The notes beneath the pieces are model-generated. The model saw nothing but the letters and a program-made list of their open reading frames with translations, was not told the DNA's origin and searched no databases. From a virus (Duplodnaviria; Heunggongvirae; Uroviricota; Caudoviricetes): 39,712 nt of DNA. Each line of letters starts with the position of its first letter. The stretch's first letter is position 1. The position numbers and the translations under genes were made by a program. The stretch lies in the IMG/VR virus record IMGVR_UViG_2778261706_000022; one strand, 5' to 3'. Shown here piece after piece: positions 1-29,413 of the stretch.

Positions 1-72
1 ATGATGGGGCGTTGCCTTTTCGGCTTCTCAGGCGAGAAGCCGTTCTTATTACCGGACAATGAAGGGGTAAAG

Positions 73-702
73 ATGAACACTTCACCGGTGCGAATGGATG
101 ATTTACCGCTTAACCGTTTTCACTGTCGAATTGCTGCGCTCACTTTCGGCGCACACCTGACCGACGGTTATGTTCTCGGCGTCATTGGTTACGCCATTAT
201 TCAACTTACGCCCGCCATGCAACTGACGCCGTTTATGGCGGGAATGATCGGCGGCTCGGCGCACCTTGGTTTGTTTCTTGGCAGCCTGGTTCTTGGGTGG
301 ATCTCCGACCATATTGGTCGGCAAAAAATCTTCACCTTCAGCTTTTTGCTGATTACGCTCGCTTCGTTCTTGCAATTTTTTGCCACCACGCCAGAGCATC
401 TTATTGGACTGCGCATTTTGATCGGCATTGGTCTGGGAGGCGATTACTCAGTAGGTCACACCTTGCTGGCTGAATTTTCCCCGCGCCGCCATCGCGGTGT
501 TTTGCTGGGCGCATTCAGCGTGGTGTGGACCGTAGGCTATGTGTTGGCAAGTATTGCCGGACATCACTTTATTTCCGAAAACCCGGAGGCCTGGCGCTGG
601 CTGCTGGCATCGGCAGCTCTGCCCGCGTTGTTGATTACGTTATTACGCTGGGGAACGCCAGAATCGCCACGCTGGCTACTTATAGCGCGGCGATTTTTTT
701 GA
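73..702 (+). pseudogene. MFS-family transporter gene, 5' portion only, interrupted by prophage insertion
   Basis: Translation has MFS/sugar-porter signatures (GxxxDxxGRQ-like loop, PESPRW motif). ATG at 73 follows a GAAGGGG Shine-Dalgarno. The frame ends in a TGA at 700-702 that coincides with the first prophage terminal repeat, and the protein is far shorter than a 12-TM transporter. Confidence 0.6.
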
Positions 703-808: not shown

Positions 809-1546
809 TCATTCACTCTCTTTCAAACCAGTTTTAACTGTTTGTGGTTTTGGGTAAGGCTGGACTTTGAATAGCTTTGTGTTGAGGCGTTTTCTGGCCC
901 TCTTGTTCAGAAACCGGATGTAACGAAACTGTCGGAACTTATGAACACTGGCTCTGTCAATATTAGCCCTCAGATGTTCACCTCGTTGTCCGCCTCGTTT
1001 AATGGCATTCCTGCAAATCTCGTGATACCACTCGCCATCAAGTTCATAGAATATTGATTCATGGCTGCCTACATAATCAAAATTGCTTGCCTGATACACG
1101 ACACCAAGACAGCCACAACGCTCATCTGCAAACGACTGAACCCACTGTACCTGCGGATAAAGCTGCCTGATTAGCTTGAGCGCGTAACTGATTGCCCTTG
1201 ATTCGGAGTTTCTCGGCATACAGTCATGCAGCCATAGCCGGTTAAGCTCCATATATTCTCGGTTCTGCGTACCCGTTACGACGCGTGCACCACTGTTTGG
1301 GTTAAGGGCGTAACCCCATTGCATTACGCCAACAAGTTCCCGTTCTGAAAATATGCCCAGATGAAGGTAGGAGTTATTTACGAAACGGTGGCTGTAATGT
1401 TTATTGACGATGACCAGTCTGGCCAGCCAGCAACTTATTGTCTCAACCCGCAACTCACGGGAGCCATAACCAACGATATTGTCGTTATAGCGAATAAGTT
1501 CAGGCGTGCTGATGATTCGGGATGTGACTTGCTTTCTGTTCCCCAC
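809..1546 (-). CDS. mom: Mom-like DNA modification protein
   Basis: Terminal gene of the prophage, overlapped at its 5' end by a Com-like zinc-finger ORF as in Mu com-mom. Start is a GTG at 1546. Identity is by position and the com overlap, not by recalled Mom sequence. Confidence 0.6.
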
Positions 1547-1700
1547 GACAGGATTTCCTTGTGTATGTGGGGTGCTCTGTGGCGCTCGGAGATGTGATTT
1601 GATTGAGGGTTTTACAGCGCGGACATTTTACTTCCAGATAACTGAAACTGGCCCGTGCCAGTAGCTTATTGCAGTGTCGGCACCGTATGTTTCGATACAT
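1500..1700 (-). CDS. com: Com-like zinc-finger translational activator
   Basis: Translation [14 protein letters not shown]...CPRCK carries the CxxC...CxxC zinc finger of Mu Com. ATG at 1700 is preceded by AGGAGG. ORF overlaps the mom start. Confidence 0.7.
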
Positions 1701-1739
1701 GACCGCATAACCTCCTGCTTTGTTGTTGATGCCTTTCTC

Positions 1740-1775
1740 ATGCAATCGATCGACAAAAACGATCGATTCGATTTG
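1740..1775 (-). promoter_or_regulatory. Candidate mom-operon control region with clustered Dam (GATC) sites
   Basis: GATC at 1748-1751 and 1761-1764 inside repeated TCGATCGA motifs, about 50-75 bp upstream of com. Confidence 0.4.
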
Positions 1776-1814
1776 TTTAATTGATACAACAAATAGATTG
1801 AAAAGTCATCAACA

Positions 1815-2893: not shown

Positions 2894-2932
2894 TCCCGCC
2901 AGCCATATCATGACCGGCGGGATTTTTTTATT
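2894..2932 (+). terminator. Intrinsic terminator-like hairpin (TCCCGCC...GGCGGGA + T7)
   Basis: 7-bp GC-rich stem at 2894-2900 / 2916-2922 followed by TTTTTTT. Overlaps the esterase stop codon on the opposite strand. Confidence 0.45.
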
Positions 2933-4967
2933 CTGTTACCGCTTTTTTCACTTCCACCACAATGCTGTCAATCAGCACCGGGTAAGTTGCATTTTTTGTG
3001 ATATCCGTTACGCGGAGTTTGTCCACCGGGAAAGTTCCTACTGGTGACTGCGTCAGGGTAAACGCGGCACCATCCTGACCATCAATAACCGGAATAACCT
3101 GAAGGCTGTTATTTCCTGCAAAACGGAAGGCCAGCGTATGCCATTCATTATCAAATGCACCAAAGGTTCCCAGTTTCTGGTTATTTGTTGCCACTTTTGC
3201 ATTGTGGTACATCACATTCAGGTCTTTTGCGTCTGTCTGGATGTAGAACGATGCCAGCAGATTATTCCCTGCATCCCCTGTCAGGGTGACACCCTGCGGC
3301 AGAGAGGAAACCGGCCAGTAAAGCCCCATGACATACTGGTTTGCCACCAGGTCGCCAGGTACTTTAAAACGACAACTGATTAAACCACCATTTTTCAGCA
3401 GTTCAGCACCAGTACCGGCATCATGATCCAGATACCAAGATGATTTACCTGTTTCCTTGGTCAGTTTCATTGCCTTACCACCTGTGCCTCCTGCATCACT
3501 GATAATTTCAGCTTTACCGCCAGCCGGCTCCCAGCCCTGGGCTTTCAGATTTCCTTCTGACTCACTGACACGATAAGACAGCAGTGTTGTGGTTACTGCT
3601 TCAGTTTCTGAAGGTGACGGCACTGGTGCTTCAGTTTCAGAAGATGGAACATCGGCTTTTACTGTGGTTCGCCCCGCATGAGTCAGAACTGCCGTGGCCA
3701 GACGGTCGGAAATAATCCCACGACGTGCCCATGAACTGAAATGGCTGGCCCGGTCCGCAGATGTCCAGGTGGCGGCACTGTTACGCCACGTTGAGCCGTA
3801 ATAACCAATGGATTCAATATCCGGGTCTTCTGCCGGATTGTTGGTGGGTACATTCGCGTCATTTTCATCTGTCATTAATGGAACGAAATGAATGTTTTTA
3901 TCTGTTTTGTTTTTGTAGCCGCCATAGATTGCCTGGTATGCCGGTTCATTTTTCTGTTTCCAGAAATACGTGGTATCGCCACAAATCCACGGAACGCCAG
4001 CAGCACTGCCACCGGTACACTGTTCCGCCTGTTCAGCCAGGTCTGCGCGGAATTTTTCCACCATCGCCAGAAACAGCGCGGAATGCTCCGTCGGCTTCGC
4101 ATCAATATCAAACTCGCCCTGCATCCACACCACAGCAAGCAGGCGGTTTTTCGGGTTCTTCGCCAGTGCCGCTTTTGTCCGGCTGATTAAGTCCTTATAC
4201 AGCGGCTTATCCACACCCCAGCGGGCTGAGTCCTCTGAAGCACCCGTGCTGTCACTGTACGTGCCGTCAGCACCCGCCGTGAATGCAGAACCACCACGGC
4301 AGCAGGGAACCAGCAGAATCCCCGCATCTGCCGGAATAAACGGCAGCAGTTTTTTGGCAATGTGAAGCCCCTGACCCACGGTGCCATATTGCCCTTTAGC
4401 CACATCCGCTTTCGGGTGATTTTTTCCACTCATATCCTGCACATCATGCAGACAGTGGTCGGCCAGAATGATGTCGTTATACTGACAGGCTTTACCTCCC
4501 GGCGTGACTGTACTGCGACGGGCTAACTGCATAATACGCGGTTCGGGGCGGTCATATGTCTCCGGCAGTGGCAGACCTTCACCGTAAGCCATACCGTTTG
4601 ACTGACCAGCAAGAACCACCACGTAATACCAGGAAGGGGAGCTGGAAGCAGTTTCATTTCCTGACGGACGGGTATGTGTTTCAGCATTATCCCAGTCTGA
4701 CGGTTCAGCAGTACCGGCAACATCAGCACTTAACGGAATGACCGCACCAATACCCGCTCCGGTAATTTCCACACTCGGATCACCGGATACTGGCCTTACC
4801 CACAGGCAATCCCGTGTATTAAAACTGATGAGACAGTCAGCAAATGTCATTCCTCCTTTTGTTTCGGCCGGAGGAAAGGGAGCCTCAAGAAATGCCGCTG
4901 TACCACCGGAAACTTTAACAGTAAAGTTTCCGGGCATTGATGATAGTTGAACCCATTTGGACGTCAT
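2928..4967 (-). CDS. SASA/SGNH-type carbohydrate esterase with C-terminal lectin-like domain (NanS-p-like sialate O-acetylesterase candidate)
   Basis: 679-aa ORF with VLAGQSNGMAYGEG and WMQGEFD motifs typical of the sialate O-acetylesterase (SASA) family, a Pro/Ser/Thr/Glu linker (SETEAPVPSPSETEA), and a C-terminal beta-rich domain. No signal peptide. Confidence 0.6.
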   Translation of the reverse strand: MTSKWVQLSSMPGNFTVKVSGGTAAFLEAPFPPAETKGGMTFADCLISFNTRDCLWVRPVSGDPSVEITGAGIGAVIPLSADVAGTAEPSDWDNAETHTRPSGNETASSSPSWYYVVVLAGQSNGMAYGEGLPLPETYDRPEPRIMQLARRSTVTPGGKACQYNDIILADHCLHDVQDMSGKNHPKADVAKGQYGTVGQGLHIAKKLLPFIPADAGILLVPCCRGGSAFTAGADGTYSDSTGASEDSARWGVDKPLYKDLISRTKAALAKNPKNRLLAVVWMQGEFDIDAKPTEHSALFLAMVEKFRADLAEQAEQCTGGSAAGVPWICGDTTYFWKQKNEPAYQAIYGGYKNKTDKNIHFVPLMTDENDANVPTNNPAEDPDIESIGYYGSTWRNSAATWTSADRASHFSSWARRGIISDRLATAVLTHAGRTTVKADVPSSETEAPVPSPSETEAVTTTLLSYRVSESEGNLKAQGWEPAGGKAEIISDAGGTGGKAMKLTKETGKSSWYLDHDAGTGAELLKNGGLISCRFKVPGDLVANQYVMGLYWPVSSLPQGVTLTGDAGNNLLASFYIQTDAKDLNVMYHNAKVATNNQKLGTFGAFDNEWHTLAFRFAGNNSLQVIPVIDGQDGAAFTLTQSPVGTFPVDKLRVTDITKNATYPVLIDSIVVEVKKAVTE

Positions 4968-5066
4968 AATAATCAGCCTGTTCCTGAATAAACTGAATTA
5001 TCATATCCACAGACCGATAAACGCCATTTTGCGTTAATTCAGTAAAGGCCCAACAAAGGGAGCGTC

Positions 5067-5627
5067 TTATTTTTCCGAAACGCTCGCAGGATAATAACGA
5101 TAAAGGGTTGAAAGGCCGATATCAAAAATAAGTGCCACCTGTCTTCGACTGACACCCCCGGCCAGTAAACGCCCGACCTGCTCGTATTGTTCCTGCGTGA
5201 GACGACGGGGTCTGCCGCCGGTTCGTCCCCTTTCACGGGCAGCTGCAAGACCAGCCCGTGTCCGTTCGACAATTAATTCACGCTCCATTTCTGCCAGCGC
5301 ACCCATTATGTGAAAAAAGAAGCGCCCCATGGGGGTTGACGTATCAATGTTGTCAGTAAGACTACGAAAATTTATCCCCTGTTGCTGTAATTCATCTGTC
5401 AGCGCAACAAGGTGGCGCATACTGCGCCCCAGCCTGTCCAGTTTCCAGACCATCAGTGTGTCACCGGGTTTTAGTTTCTTCAGTGCCCGCTTCAGTCCCG
5501 GCCGCTGTGTCGTTTTACCACTCATTTTATCTTCAAAAATCTGCTCACATCCTGCACATTCCAGCGCATTTCTTTGTAAACCTGTGTTCTGGTCATTTGT
5601 TGATACGCGTATATAGCCAATCAGCAT
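5067..5627 (-). CDS. gin: Serine DNA invertase (Gin/Pin/Hin/Cin family)
   Basis: Translation MLIGYIRVSTNDQNTGLQRNALECAGCEQIFEDK...FRSLTDNIDTSTPMGRFFFHIMGALAEMERELIVERT closely matches my recollection of Mu Gin. Adjacent to an invertible segment. Confidence 0.9.
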   Translation of the reverse strand: MLIGYIRVSTNDQNTGLQRNALECAGCEQIFEDKMSGKTTQRPGLKRALKKLKPGDTLMVWKLDRLGRSMRHLVALTDELQQQGINFRSLTDNIDTSTPMGRFFFHIMGALAEMERELIVERTRAGLAAARERGRTGGRPRRLTQEQYEQVGRLLAGGVSRRQVALIFDIGLSTLYRYYPASVSEK

Positions 5628-5681
5628 GTATTTACCTTCCTTAAAAAGAGGTGGAAAGGCCTTTTAAAGCAGATATACGGC

Positions 5682-5707
5682 ATCCCTGAAACCTCGGTTT
5701 ACGGGAT
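5682..5707. repeat. gix-like recombination site (gin-proximal)
   Basis: ATCCCTGAAACC-TC-GGTTTACGGGAT: imperfect 12-bp inverted half-sites around a central dinucleotide, resembling gix/hix/cix sites. Confidence 0.6.
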
Positions 5708-6052
5708 ACTGTAAACAGGGCCGCGAATGCCCTGCCATCGAACGGAGCGGCTGTTGCAGCGAATAAACTCGCCACTCCAAGAAATATTAATGGTGTCCCA
5801 TTTGACGGAACGCAGGATATAAATATTACATCGGGGATGACGCAGTCTGTGGCTGACTCACGTTATGTTCAAAGCATTCGAAGAGGTTCAAGGTCAACGA
5901 TTGGAATGCAATATAATATTTTTGAGGTTCCTGACGGATGCGTACTTACAGGGCTTGATGTCGCTGGTGATGGTAATGCAACGGTAACCGCATATTATCG
6001 ACCTGTTCAGTTTCTGATAGATGGTTCGTGGAAAACAGCTTCCAGCGCATAA
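5708..6052 (+). other. Silent alternative tail-fibre C-terminal cassette (S'v-like)
   Basis: Frame is open from the gix site. Translation GLRDTVNRAANALPSNGAAVAANKLATPRNINGVPFDGTQDINITSGMTQSVADSRYVQ parallels the expressed fibre segment GLRETVNKAADALPSGGTAVAANRLATPRNINGVPFDGTLDINITSGMTQSTADGRYVQ, then diverges to a different C-terminus. No start codon of its own. Confidence 0.65.
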
Positions 6053-6131
6053 AAGTGCAGTAGTTCAAAAAACAGATTATCTGAATAAATATATGATGAT
6101 TTTGTCTTTTCAACAAAAACAAGGTGAAATA

Positions 6132-6653
6132 ATGGAGCTTATTAACGTAAAACGATATTACCCGGAACACAAACCCTATGGTGAGGATGTTCAGTATTTC
6201 CAGAGTGAGGACGGAAGGGATTTTTATGAATCTATCCCGCTTTTCACAAAGAAATACAAACTCTGTATTTCGCCTGTAACGGGTATTATCTGCTCTGTTG
6301 CTGAAGATGTCTCTGCTTTATATCCGGCAGGTTTTACTGTTGTTGAAGTGGACGAACTGCCGGAAGGTGTGAATATTGACGGTAACTGGCAGTTTTCTGA
6401 TGGCCTGATATCAAAGGTGCCGGTAAACTGGAAGACGGTTGCTGAAAAGCGCCGCTCATCGCTGCTCCAGGAAGCCAACGAAACTGTGGATGACTGGAAA
6501 ACGGAATTAAAACTGGACATGATTAGCGATGAAAATAAATTACAGCTGACGCGCTGGATGGCGTATATCCGACAGCTTAAAGAAATGCACTTTAATGATA
6601 TTGCCAGTGAGGGGCATTACCAGGCGATTCCCTGGCCGGAAAAACCGGAATAA
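6132..6653 (+). CDS. Tail fibre assembly protein (Tfa/U-like)
   Basis: ATG at 6132 is preceded by AAGGTGA. Translation MELINVKRYYPEHKPYGEDVQYF... has the typical N-terminus of phage tail-fibre assembly chaperones. Lies immediately downstream of the S'v cassette on the same strand. Confidence 0.7.
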   Translation: MELINVKRYYPEHKPYGEDVQYFQSEDGRDFYESIPLFTKKYKLCISPVTGIICSVAEDVSALYPAGFTVVEVDELPEGVNIDGNWQFSDGLISKVPVNWKTVAEKRRSSLLQEANETVDDWKTELKLDMISDENKLQLTRWMAYIRQLKEMHFNDIASEGHYQAIPWPEKPE

Positions 6654-6658
6654 TTCAG

Positions 6659-6682
6659 AGGGTGCATTCAGCACCCTTTTCT
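6659..6682 (+). terminator. Intrinsic terminator between convergent tfa and tail-fibre genes
   Basis: AGGGTGC-ATTCA-GCACCCT hairpin followed by TTTTCT. Confidence 0.5.
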
Positions 6683-6687
6683 GTGGT

Positions 6688-7599
6688 TTACACTGAACTT
6701 ACCGTTCTCCAGGCATTATTAATATAAATCTGAACCGGGCGATAATAGACCCCACCGATATTGTCCGCAGACCGGGAGCCGGTTTCCTGCACGTTAATTC
6801 CGGAAAGCATACAACCGGAAGGTGCGCTGTAATTCCATGACATTTCATTGCCTCCGGGTGAATGATAGCTCTGTGCTCCAAGCTGAACATTCTGTACATA
6901 CCGGCCATCTGCGGTTGACTGCGTCATTCCTGACGTGATGTTGATATCCAGCGTTCCGTCAAAAGGAACACCATTAATATTTCTTGGGGTGGCGAGTCTG
7001 TTTGCTGCCACGGCGGTTCCACCCGATGGCAGGGCATCAGCAGCCTTATTTACCGTTTCCCGTAAACCGACGTTATCGATAAAAGCGCCTTTATCCGGAA
7101 TGTCTGCGCCGTTCTGCTCCCTGCGCAGGTAACGGTTATCACCTTCGCTTTTGCTGTAAACATCCAGATTATTACGGGCGGTTCCCGCATTCTCCAGGTC
7201 GGCAAGGTTCTGATCCTTCGCCAGAGCATTAACGTCACCGGGACCAAGACTGTTTTTTGTGGCAAGCGCCCCAAGACCAAGATAACCACGGGCAAGACGC
7301 TGGGCTTCCGCACCGGCATCAGCAATTTCTTTCAGGTTGTTTTTCCGGGAAAAGGCATTCGCAGCGATAATGGCTTTAATGGACAGCGTAAGCTGGTTTA
7401 ACTGCGCCTTATCCGGCTGAATACTGGCTTCAGCCAGAATATTCAGCAGTTCGGCCTGGAGAATATTCAGCCAGTCCTGACCAATCCAGCTGATACCTTT
7501 TTGTCCGTCACCTTCGGTAAACCAGGTGGTGGTATTACTCTGCGCCGGTGCCAGCGCAGGCATATTCGCCACGCCGGAATTATTATCAACATGGAACAT
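6688..7599 (-). CDS. Tail fibre protein (constant part + currently expressed variable part)
   Basis: ATG at 7599 overlaps the upstream stop as TAATG. A gix-like site lies inside the ORF at 7057-7082. C-terminal segment is homologous to the silent cassette at 5708-6052. Confidence 0.7.
   Translation of the reverse strand: MFHVDNNSGVANMPALAPAQSNTTTWFTEGDGQKGISWIGQDWLNILQAELLNILAEASIQPDKAQLNQLTLSIKAIIAANAFSRKNNLKEIADAGAEAQRLARGYLGLGALATKNSLGPGDVNALAKDQNLADLENAGTARNNLDVYSKSEGDNRYLRREQNGADIPDKGAFIDNVGLRETVNKAADALPSGGTAVAANRLATPRNINGVPFDGTLDINITSGMTQSTADGRYVQNVQLGAQSYHSPGGNEMSWNYSAPSGCMLSGINVQETGSRSADNIGGVYYRPVQIYINNAWRTVSSV
7057..7082. repeat. gix-like recombination site inside the tail-fibre gene
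   Basis: TTCCCGTAAACC-GA-CGTTATCGATAA. Its reverse complement shares TCGGTTTACGGGA with the gin-proximal site, and homology continues ~170 bp into the segment. Confidence 0.6.
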
Positions 7600-8159
7600 T
7601 AAATATTCTCCTCTTCGTGACTGTTTGCATATACGTAAATAAACGTCTGCCATGCAGGCTTATAACGGTTCAGAATACATTCCAGCGCACCGCCTTCATA
7701 AATACGCAGCGGCGTGAGAATATCATCCAGCACATTCATATTCCGGTAGCCGGTTTCACTGTTAATCGTGACAATACTGACCCACTGTGAATCCGGTGAT
7801 GGCTGAATATCTATTTCATAACCAAACTCTGCCGCAAACCGGATATAAAATTCACGGTTAAGAGAGGGTTTCATCCGGTATTTATTCCCGGCATAACGCT
7901 GACGCTCCTGAATGGTTGCGCCGGTCATATCACATTCCGGTAACCCCAGATAACGCTCCCAGTCTTCCAGCAGCAGACGGGATGAATCAGGAAAACGTTC
8001 TGCCAGCATCTGGTTACCGGTCCAGGAAACACGCTCCGTGGAATGACTGAGGCCCAGGCACAAAGCCGCAAGAACGGATGACGGCCGCTTATCCCATGCC
8101 AGCCCGTCAGGCAGCAACTGCAACAGGGCGCGCTGATGCGGGGTCAGGGTTACAGCCAT
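7599..8159 (-). CDS. Baseplate/tail protein (Mu gp48 position)
   Basis: 186-aa ORF translationally coupled between the baseplate J-like gene and the tail-fibre gene. Confidence 0.55.
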   Translation of the reverse strand: MAVTLTPHQRALLQLLPDGLAWDKRPSSVLAALCLGLSHSTERVSWTGNQMLAERFPDSSRLLLEDWERYLGLPECDMTGATIQERQRYAGNKYRMKPSLNREFYIRFAAEFGYEIDIQPSPDSQWVSIVTINSETGYRNMNVLDDILTPLRIYEGGALECILNRYKPAWQTFIYVYANSHEEENI

Positions 8160-9235
8160 GTGATTTCCCCCACGGTCAGCAACTCTGTATCTCCGGCCAT
8201 CACGGACTTCAGCGGGCTGCGAACTTCAAAATCCTCCAGTCCTTTCACCCCTGCAACAGCCCGCCAGAATGATGAAGGCAATACAAGTCCACCCGGCCGC
8301 GATTCGTTATAAAGCAGGTCTGTTAATGCCTGTTTTACGGCAGCCTGATTTTCCGGCGTTTTGGGTACAATCCTGATCTCAAACGCCACCGGCTTATTGG
8401 TCAGCTTAAACACGCTGATTGTCGGCCCAAGTGGCTGACCAACGGGCTGGCCCGTCGCCGGATCATCATGACTGCGGATATAATCCGCCACCCGCTTCAC
8501 ATCACCTTCTCCGGGGAAAATGTCAGGGTTATTATCCTGAACAAAAGTCACACCAACACTACCCGCCTCAGGCCATTCAGGCTTACACCATGCCCGCGTC
8601 ACGCCCGGTACTTCCCGTGCCCAGCGTTCAAAATCATACTGTGTTCCCCCTGATGGCGGGTTCTGTACCCGGAATACCAGCCTGGACAGCAACTCCGGCA
8701 CCGTTTCCACATCCGCACCACCGGTGAGTCCCGTGCCGGTGACCGTGGCTGTCTGGTTGATGCCCGCCTGTGGCGTGATAAAGGACAGGCGGGTTCCGGT
8801 CGGGGTATTTCCAGCGCGCCCCGCACTTTCCGCCTCCACATTAACATTCAGTGTTCCGGCTTTTCCGGTCGCAGAGCCGGTGATGCGGTACACAACCCCA
8901 TCGCTTCGCTGAAGGAGTACGCCTTCCGTGATCCCTGCATCCGTGGTCAGCATCAGTTGTACCGGTCCGTCAGCGCGGGAAGCCGGTTTACGGATGACAC
9001 CCCAGAATGCGCAGTGTTTCAGGAGTTCGGCTTCATCAGCTTCTGTCGGAATTATCTGCCGGGAGATCCAGGCCAGATGTTCATGCTCCTGTGCTGACAG
9101 ACCCGCCAGTGCATACGCAATGGCATTCAGGGTGGTTTCATTCACGCCCGGCTGCGAACCGGGCAGGCGCTGGCTGATATCCTGTTGTGTCTGTGTGATC
9201 AGTTGCGCCAGTGGTAAGGGCTGATAAGGCATCAT
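8150..9235 (-). CDS. Baseplate J-like protein (Mu gp47 position)
   Basis: 361-aa ORF in the baseplate block, overlapping neighbours by 4-10 nt. Confidence 0.65.
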   Translation of the reverse strand: MMPYQPLPLAQLITQTQQDISQRLPGSQPGVNETTLNAIAYALAGLSAQEHEHLAWISRQIIPTEADEAELLKHCAFWGVIRKPASRADGPVQLMLTTDAGITEGVLLQRSDGVVYRITGSATGKAGTLNVNVEAESAGRAGNTPTGTRLSFITPQAGINQTATVTGTGLTGGADVETVPELLSRLVFRVQNPPSGGTQYDFERWAREVPGVTRAWCKPEWPEAGSVGVTFVQDNNPDIFPGEGDVKRVADYIRSHDDPATGQPVGQPLGPTISVFKLTNKPVAFEIRIVPKTPENQAAVKQALTDLLYNESRPGGLVLPSSFWRAVAGVKGLEDFEVRSPLKSVMAGDTELLTVGEITWL

Positions 9236-28987: not shown

Positions 28988-29413
28988 TCAGAAAAGTGGC
29001 GGTTGTGTTCTTGCCAGATGCAGACGGCGCTGTTCACGTATGACGGTATAAATCTGGGTTTCTGACATCCGGTAATGGCGGCGAAGGGATTCAATTTTCT
29101 CGCCCCGGTCCCAGCGCGAAAATATCTCATTGTTTCGCAGCTCGGCAAAGAGAGATTCCCCGACCGGCAGGTAATAACCCCGTCCGCCCATATAGGCTGC
29201 CTGAGCCGCAGCCACCTTGCGTGCCAGTTTGCCGGCCAGTACCGGCTCAATCCCCTGACGCTGAAGTTCTGCGCCGGTGACTTCAACCAGTTCTGACAGG
29301 GTCCGCGGCCAGTTCTTTTTGAGAACATCATCAGGGATGTCATCAAGGCGGTCGATAAGGGCGTGCAGTTGCTCACTGTCACCACCAAACATGCTCATCT
29401 GAGTTTCTGCCAT
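28988..29413 (-). CDS. mor: Mor/C-family transcriptional activator
   Basis: 141-aa protein with C-terminal helix-turn-helix (MSETQIYTVIREQRRL), directly downstream of GemA. Only one Mor/C homologue is present. Confidence 0.65.
   Translation of the reverse strand: MAETQMSMFGGDSEQLHALIDRLDDIPDDVLKKNWPRTLSELVEVTGAELQRQGIEPVLAGKLARKVAAAQAAYMGGRGYYLPVGESLFAELRNNEIFSRWDRGEKIESLRRHYRMSETQIYTVIREQRRLHLARTQPPLF

Follow-up and report, generated by a model that had tools for sequence, protein, structure and literature searches.

The complete Mu-like prophage held in the viral record IMGVR_UViG_2778261706_000022 (39,712 nt; this whole stretch of DNA is referred to as the window) carries an invertible tail-fibre segment of 1.38 kb, in which two alternative fibre tips are encoded by convergent cassettes with only a single tail-fibre assembly gene (tfa) between them. 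Sequence comparison suggests that this one Tfa chaperone is shared by both tips and is expressed irrespective of the orientation of the segment, a reading to which we assign a probability of roughly 0.55. In the mechanism envisaged, a Gin-family DNA invertase cuts the central TC of two inverted gix sites, i.e., one in the fibre gene and one beside gin, and inverts the 1.38-kb segment, whereby the constant fibre N-terminus (residues 1 to ~177) is fused in frame to either tip A (a fibre of 303 amino acids, aa) or tip B (295 aa), and the single Tfa would serve both. After inversion, tfa would be co-transcribed with tip B, and in the present state it would have to be transcribed separately, probably from a start within the AT-rich spacer (6053–6131). 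The broader proposal of one chaperone for many tips, in which a promiscuous Tfa with its own orientation-independent expression folds any tip that is fused to the constant part, is more tentative and in our estimate falls slightly short of an even chance.

The invertase is encoded on the minus strand at 5067–5627 (186 aa; Pfam Resolvase at 1.4e-51 and HTH_7 at 1.7e-14) and aligns over residues 1–182 with the Mu Gin structures 3UJ3/4M6F (E = 2e-91). It is an intact Gin homologue of the 78% class with a conserved YIRVST serine motif, and the first 260 nt of its gene, where switches of this family have a Fis-dependent recombinational enhancer, align well with Mu gin. The top-scoring gix-like site in a scan of the whole window lies on the invertase side at 5682–5707 (ATCCCTGAAACC-TC-GGTTTACGGGAT, centre TC at 5694–5695), and a second one lies inside the fibre open reading frame (ORF) at 7057–7082 (TTATCGATAACG-TC-GGTTTACGGGAA when read on the fibre strand, centre GA at 7069–7070 on the plus strand). 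Both 26-bp sites are in inverted orientation and have the central TC in common. Moreover, the fibre-side site is identical to Mu gix at 22 of 26 positions and occupies the same ...N(L/V)GL(Q/R)ETVN... position of the fibre protein. An earlier note, made from the letters of this DNA alone, had described a Gin-invertible segment of ~1.38 kb, shorter than the G segment of Mu, and its features were recovered at the same coordinates, with ~1,375 bp between the crossover centres (vs. 3,059 bp in Mu). The inverted homology that it had reported beyond the gix cores was likewise found by repeat search and alignment, in the form of two arms (5690–5871 and 6893–7074) of 182 nt that are 79% complementary, the left one coding for the repeat-bearing stretch common to both cassettes.

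The currently expressed fibre gene spans 6688–7599 on the minus strand (303 aa), with its true ATG at 7599 rather than at 7653, where the mechanically called ORF starts. Its constant N-terminal part (7071–7599, minus strand), the equivalent of Sc, lies outside the segment, and fibre residues 1–198 align to residues 1–191 of Mu S (E = 3e-43). The variable part is formed by the tip A cassette (6688–7070, minus strand); fibre residues 229–302 match Mu S tip residues 435–503 (5YVQ_A, 8e-5), and the last ~70 residues of the fibre are homologous to the Mu S tip domain. Both features of a Mu S-type fibre are present, i.e., the Sc-type N-terminal baseplate-attachment region and the S-type C-terminal tip domain. 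Tip A (window 6688–6900, minus strand) also matches residues 483–553 of a 'short tail fiber' chain in the PDB (9CUY_c) at E = 1.4e-15, far better than it matches the Mu S tip. Among relatives, the ratio of nonsynonymous to synonymous substitution rates (dN/dS) of tip A is 0.05–0.13, at a saturating synonymous divergence (dS) of 0.6–1.7, which indicates that tip A cassettes are expressed and selected, and marks tip A as a coding sequence under strong purifying selection.

The silent tip B cassette (5694–6052, plus strand) has PHROG tail-fibre matches but neither a start codon nor a promoter, and its reading frame is open from the gix centre through the stop codon at 6052. When the segment was flipped in silico at the gix centres, tip B became the C-terminus of an in-frame fibre of 295 aa, with the crossover inside the Val codon of ...DNV/GLR..., just as the earlier note had predicted. 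Exactly this protein is annotated in natural flipped genomes (WP_032213164), and both the 303-aa and the 295-aa fibre are thus found annotated in nature. The same note had expected the two forms to differ only in their last ~50 residues, which proved too few: they differ over the last 67 (tip A) or 59 (tip B) residues, which are ~42% identical, and 9 further differences fall among the 58 residues for which the repeat arms code.

To look for inversion in nature, the in-silico inversion product was searched against 5,426 complete Escherichia coli genomes. The flipped form was present at 100.0% identity over 2,701 nt in FORC_044, O157:H7 2-6-2, and 07_3636. Strain 07_3636 (NZ_CP074928.1) even carries two prophage copies in opposite orientations (2102863–2105563 and 4689407–4692107), each 100% identical to its respective query. 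Strains SMN197SH3 and OkiPb01679 likewise hold two copies in different states. The present orientation was found in 182 records vs. 23 for the flipped one, counts that are non-independent because many of the strains are clonal, and the relatives in IMG/VR divided into ~18 vs. ~7. Both orientations therefore exist, and the natural flipped genomes, together with the occurrence of both states in one strain, indicate that the switch is active.

The arms share an identical core of 13 nt (TCGGTTTACGGGA) that contains the Gin cleavage dinucleotide. Since the arms are only 79% identical, yet the natural flips match the predicted product at 100%, the crossover must have been confined to this core, which argues for site-specific over homologous recombination. 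RecA-dependent recombination between the 182-nt repeats, i.e., inversion not involving the invertase, could draw on arms that are long enough for occasional homologous exchange and on arm sequences whose mosaicism between relatives suggests gene conversion. It is nevertheless scarcely probable, given that natural flips reproduce the gix-centre flip at 100% with a crossover in 13 nt out of a 182-nt arm, and that an intact Gin homologue and Mu-like gix sites are present. The arms themselves (5708–5871 and 6893–7056) are mosaic among close relatives, with 72–87% identity compared with 99–100% for the segment centre, and in two IMG/VR loci (L001 and L017) the identity between one arm and the opposite arm of the window is 92%, a pattern suggestive of gene conversion or of an exchange of arms between the cassettes. 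A nested inversion of tfa alone was also considered and rejected, as only a weak quasi-site is available for it and tfa is inverted alone in none of the relatives.

The lone tfa gene lies at 6132–6653 on the plus strand and encodes 173 aa with a Caudo_TAP domain (PF02413; 1.9e-18, 67.3 bits against a cut-off of 22.1), a match to PHROG 136 at 1e-57, and similarity to Mu U over residues 17–147 (PDB 5YVQ_B, E = 2e-15). A tblastn search of the whole 39.7-kb window yielded no second tfa-like sequence; specifically, a 98-aa antisense ORF at 6224–6520 had no Pfam match, and the antisense ORFs within tfa had no family match. Domain and translation evidence thus bear out the arrangement given in the earlier note, i.e., an expressed variable part on the minus strand, a promoterless cassette on the plus strand, and tfa as the only gene of its kind. 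At present, tfa points towards the fibre gene and runs antisense to the late operon; after the flip it is co-oriented with tip B, from which it is separated by a gap of 79 nt. This AT-rich spacer (6053–6131, plus strand) is the candidate site of an orientation-independent tfa promoter, and a weak AAAACA-17-TATGAT is the sole promoter-like match that could be discerned in it by eye. Between the convergent stop codons of tfa and the fibre gene, a hairpin at 6657–6679 (plus strand) is terminator-like on the tfa strand, and a gap of 31–34 nt between both stops is kept in all relatives.

A phage-specific promoter was sought as well. Mu C-type sites have the form TTAT-N6-ATAA, and a candidate in the spacer was dropped since the palindromic TTATCTGAATAA has N4 spacing; the other two matches in the window are located off the late-gene starts. 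The regions upstream of C-lys and com were inspected for a late-promoter motif of the phage's own, and none could be reliably defined in them.

The extent to which this layout is conserved was assessed with two sets of IMG/VR loci, 80 retrieved by the Tfa protein and 64 by the constant part of the fibre; a scan of genome contigs with the Tfa protein yielded no confirmed locus, and the cross-species sampling thus comes from IMG/VR. All Sp18-like relatives (named after the O157:H7 prophage discussed below) have one tfa between two convergent cassettes. Next to the 3′ end of tfa (position A), a single tip class is found throughout, i.e., tip A or a cousin with the motif VQ(D/E)xGxxxADNxGGVYYRP. 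In the position co-oriented with tfa (position B), at least three unrelated tip types have been exchanged, each travelling with its own spacer of 79, 54, or 124 nt. One relative with a quite different position-B tip has a tfa that is 98% identical and a tip A with only two residue differences. Across the diverged single-tfa sublineages, Tfa is 61–100% identical and the ORFs are all intact, and dN/dS is far below 1 for tip A, for the Mu-S-like alternative tip, and for tfa.

At the N-terminus of Tfa, the initial ~14 residues vary in step with the spacer and the type of position-B cassette, and a further search for gix sequences returned a weak quasi-site (20/26) at window positions 6142–6167, in codons 4–12 of tfa. 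A breakpoint of cassette exchange seems to lie near 6142–6167, although the coincidence may be due to chance.

A comparable arrangement was encountered in a more distant Mu-like phage (locus L136), whose constant fibre part is 73% identical and whose single-tfa segment has a different Tfa class. Here (5001–8871 of that locus), a 472-aa fibre is convergent with a 229-aa Tfa, and a silent tip-A-like cassette is co-oriented with the latter. The 69-nt spacer before its tfa holds the only two sigma-70-like matches of a 1.1-kb scan. The single-tfa segment of L136 is independently derived, and the sister phage L128 has two tfa genes in the classical arrangement.

These comparisons bear on the notion that an accidental loss reduced two original tfa genes to one, and that the segment is now a degenerating remnant without a selected function. 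Classical relatives with two tfa genes (Mu, SfMu, Yersinia Mu-like phages, and L128) would provide the starting point for such a decay. We regard it as very improbable, however, because the layout is common to diverged sublineages (at the above Tfa identities, and with at least three different tips in the co-oriented position), no ORF is disrupted, the segment occurs in either orientation, tip A, the Mu-S-like alternative tip, and tfa all have a dN/dS far below 1, and the layout recurs independently in L136.

The length of the spacer forms a further pattern, in that the AT-rich spacers before tfa amount to 54–124 nt in all four single-tfa types, compared with 0–20 nt in two-tfa or non-invertible modules. 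Because the type-1 spacers are identical in all close relatives, their conservation is uninformative. The 124-nt spacer type (L016, L018 and relatives) contains an ATG in frame with tfa, ~51 nt upstream, which would add a hydrophobic extension of 17 residues (MAIVLFLFLSLIYMVMF); as it lacks a Shine-Dalgarno sequence, this ATG is probably unused.

Outside the lineage, every tip with 56–69% identity to tip A has a tfa gene behind it. In three annotated phages (Rac-SA53, SfMu, and a P2-like phage), with tips 60–64% identical to tip A, tfa follows within 1–3 nt, and in IMG/VR loci it follows within ~20 nt. The Tfa of Rac-SA53 belongs to the same class as that of the window and is 52.6% identical to it over its full length, and in ~37 of 50 non-invertible IMG/VR loci it is this very Tfa class that follows a tip-A-like tip. 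The N-terminal domain of Tfa is described as its fibre-binding part in the section of PMC9608196 that summarises North et al. 2019. A strict co-variation between Tfa type and tip A was considered as well but became weaker on inspection, as Tfa types pair with both tip-A subclasses and U-class pairings occur elsewhere.

A sublineage that has lost the ability to switch offers another view on the relation between tip A and tfa. In this frozen sublineage, a deletion has removed the larger part of gin together with the gix site on its side and the cassette at position B; only 41 nt are left of the 3′ end of gin, and from there the deletion reaches as far as the stop codon of the former tip. What remains is a position-A fibre of the tip-A class, to which tfa is permanently convergent, and tfa is intact in all members, with a dN/dS of 0.10–0.23 at a dS of up to 0.43. 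The same deletion junction was found in four unrelated E. coli strains with four interrupted host genes (bcsA, flgK, lateral-flagellar flgL, and the xanthine dehydrogenase gene next to xdhB), which indicates that the frozen lineage kept moving after the deletion.

The retained tfa of this sublineage also matters for the possibility that Tfa for tip A is supplied in trans by other resident prophages. Such supply would profit from the partial interchangeability of Tfa proteins, as lambda Tfa can replace T4 gp38, and strains of Shiga toxin-producing E. coli (STEC) carry many lambdoid prophages. The hosts are, moreover, described as poly-lysogens (PMC2669165). Nevertheless, the frozen and invertible forms also occur in diverse non-STEC E. 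coli (mouse, human-commensal, and marmot isolates), co-induction of other prophages would be required, and it would remain unexplained why the resident tfa of the frozen lineage is under purifying selection; we therefore consider trans supply improbable.

Taken together, the association with an adjacent tfa elsewhere, the selection on tip A, the frozen lineage, and the pattern of spacer lengths suggest that tip A uses this Tfa. Several observations nevertheless weigh against a shared, orientation-independent Tfa. No sigma-70 consensus was found at threshold on the plus strand in 6053–6131 or elsewhere upstream of tfa. The tfa-oriented, terminator-like hairpin suits the design of a tip B–tfa operon. 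At the junction of the frozen deletion, a near-consensus ATGATA-17-TATAAT (10/12) is located exactly at the seam, ~125 nt upstream of tfa and pointing into it (L018, 3849–3877; the same junction is present in L019–L023, L027, and L090–L093), so that tfa of the frozen lineage may have acquired a promoter that is missing from the invertible form. Finally, tip-A-like tips pair with U-class Tfas too (SfMu gp51 and P2-like gp23), and pairing in other phages is suggestive, rather than proof, of cognate partnership.

Most of these points would fit a Tfa that is dedicated to tip B and produced solely in the inverted state, with the present fibre going without a chaperone and either folding unaided or yielding non-infective particles (effectively an OFF state). 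The orientation of tfa, which is shared with tip B and currently antisense to the late operon, agrees with such a restricted role, as do the lack of a recognisable promoter upstream of tfa, the hairpin facing tfa, and the new consensus-like promoter at the frozen junction, which looks as if it had been needed. It is hard to reconcile, however, with the strong purifying selection on tip A cassettes, with the greater frequency of the present orientation in lysogens (182 vs. 23 records, and ~18 vs. 7 IMG/VR loci), with a frozen lineage that retained tip A rather than tip B next to an intact tfa, with the constant presence of an adjacent tfa behind tip-A-class tips elsewhere, and with the replacement of the co-oriented tip by unrelated ones while tfa stays 98% identical. 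On balance we find this restriction to tip B unlikely. The comparative data do not support a tfa that belongs to the alternative tip only, and the corresponding claim in the earlier note survives in part: tfa is indeed co-oriented with the silent cassette, whereas the implied lack of a chaperone for the expressed tip is made doubtful by the partners of tip A elsewhere, the selection on it, and the frozen lineage.

Within the prophage, which is encoded on the minus strand, the gene content comprises transposase genes, a Mor/C-family activator (28988–29413), lysozyme, genes for head and tail, and the gp44–48 baseplate genes, after which come the fibre gene with the invertible segment, then gin, a cargo gene, and com/mom. 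The region 5000–7700 has perfect (100%) matches in many genomes of O157:H7 and other STEC and is 94% identical to a "Mu-like phage" inserted in two records of Shiga toxin (Stx) phages, which identifies the element as an Sp18-type Mu-like prophage of STEC; it is present in ~200 complete E. coli genomes. A truncated ORF for a major facilitator superfamily (MFS) sugar transporter (window 1–702, plus strand, 233 aa) abuts the prophage end, and the present copy therefore interrupts this transporter gene instead of the sorM site used by Sp18 of O157:H7 Sakai (PMC7430833).

The cargo gene (window 2928–4967, minus strand), situated between gin and com/mom, encodes a 679-aa protein with a sialate O-acetylesterase (SASA) domain and a DUF6645 assignment. 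Nothing is present at this position in Mu, in contrast to nearly all relatives of this Mu-like lineage, in which the protein occurs at 46–100% identity; we take it to resemble the prophage NanS-p esterases of enterohaemorrhagic E. coli. Further along, a Mom-family gene (809–1546) and a com-like ORF (window 809–1800, minus strand) are preceded by a GATC cluster at ~1748–1765, which is reminiscent of the Dam/OxyR control of the Mu mom promoter.

Invertible fibre segments are a textbook form of host-range bet-hedging in phages, and Tfa chaperones limit the free exchange of fibre tips in phage and tailocin engineering. If a single Tfa indeed serves both tips, one chaperone could service several receptor-binding tips, and its expression could be uncoupled from the fibre operon. 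This would explain the free swapping of the co-oriented cassette, as well as why the invertase and second cassette could be discarded without loss of infectivity, and the arrangement would then constitute a host-range module that is both minimal and portable, regulated through the extra spacer. As the element is widespread in STEC, the matter bears on phage spread among these pathogens. The segment is otherwise of a known and well-understood kind, and only its architecture is modestly unusual.

Both the element and the fact that it inverts have been described before. An "invertible host-specificity region" of Sp18 was noted in 2009 (Asadulghani et al.; PMC2669165), and Sp18 of Sakai is of the same element type, although the parts of that work consulted describe neither the single-tfa asymmetry nor orientation frequencies or frozen derivatives. 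Programmed inversions of ~1.2–1.5 kb in prophage fibre genes, confirmed by long reads and in one case described as homologous to Mu S, are reported in Milman et al. 2023 (Nucleic Acids Research, PMC9881135); they are similar in size and kind, and that paper leaves chaperone content undiscussed. In the literature as far as it was surveyed, we found no description of a shared single tfa, of a fixed position A opposite a variable position B, or of gin-less frozen derivatives. The additions made here, on the strength of locus comparisons, are the conservation of the single-tfa layout across the whole lineage with interchangeable tips and its independent origin in a second Mu-like group.

Among individual systems, Rac-SA53 tail1/tail2 has both the tip most similar to tip A outside the lineage (63.6%) and, directly behind it, the most similar outside Tfa (52.6%), but its genes are co-directional and tightly coupled, without an invertase or an alternative cassette. 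The SfMu G segment has the same gene order, a Gin-type invertase, and an S′ tip (gp52) 60% identical to tip A; unlike the window, it has two tfa genes (gp50 and gp51), each 1–3 nt after its fibre gene and both of the U class, with 27–30% identity to the window Tfa. The Mu G segment resembles that of the window in its homologous invertase, gix sites (22/26), constant fibre part, tip domain, and Tfa, but measures 3,059 bp (NC_000929 annotation) rather than ~1,375 bp, encodes a fibre of 504 rather than 303 aa (the window fibre lacks a shaft of ~240 aa), contains two tip–chaperone pairs (S–U and S′–U′) instead of one tfa between two cassettes, and leaves 2 nt before tfa where the window has a spacer of 79 nt. 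The window shares with Mu G-type switches an adjacent Gin-family invertase, an inverted gix pair with the same dinucleotide, a site in the fibre ORF that is in frame either way, and the occurrence of both orientations with a crossover in the core, and it departs from the classical S–U/S′–U′ pairing, in which each tip has its own co-oriented tfa, by its single tfa. Judged by these features, the device is best called a Mu G-type (Din-family: Gin/Cin/Pin) invertible fibre switch, in a compact single-chaperone variant.

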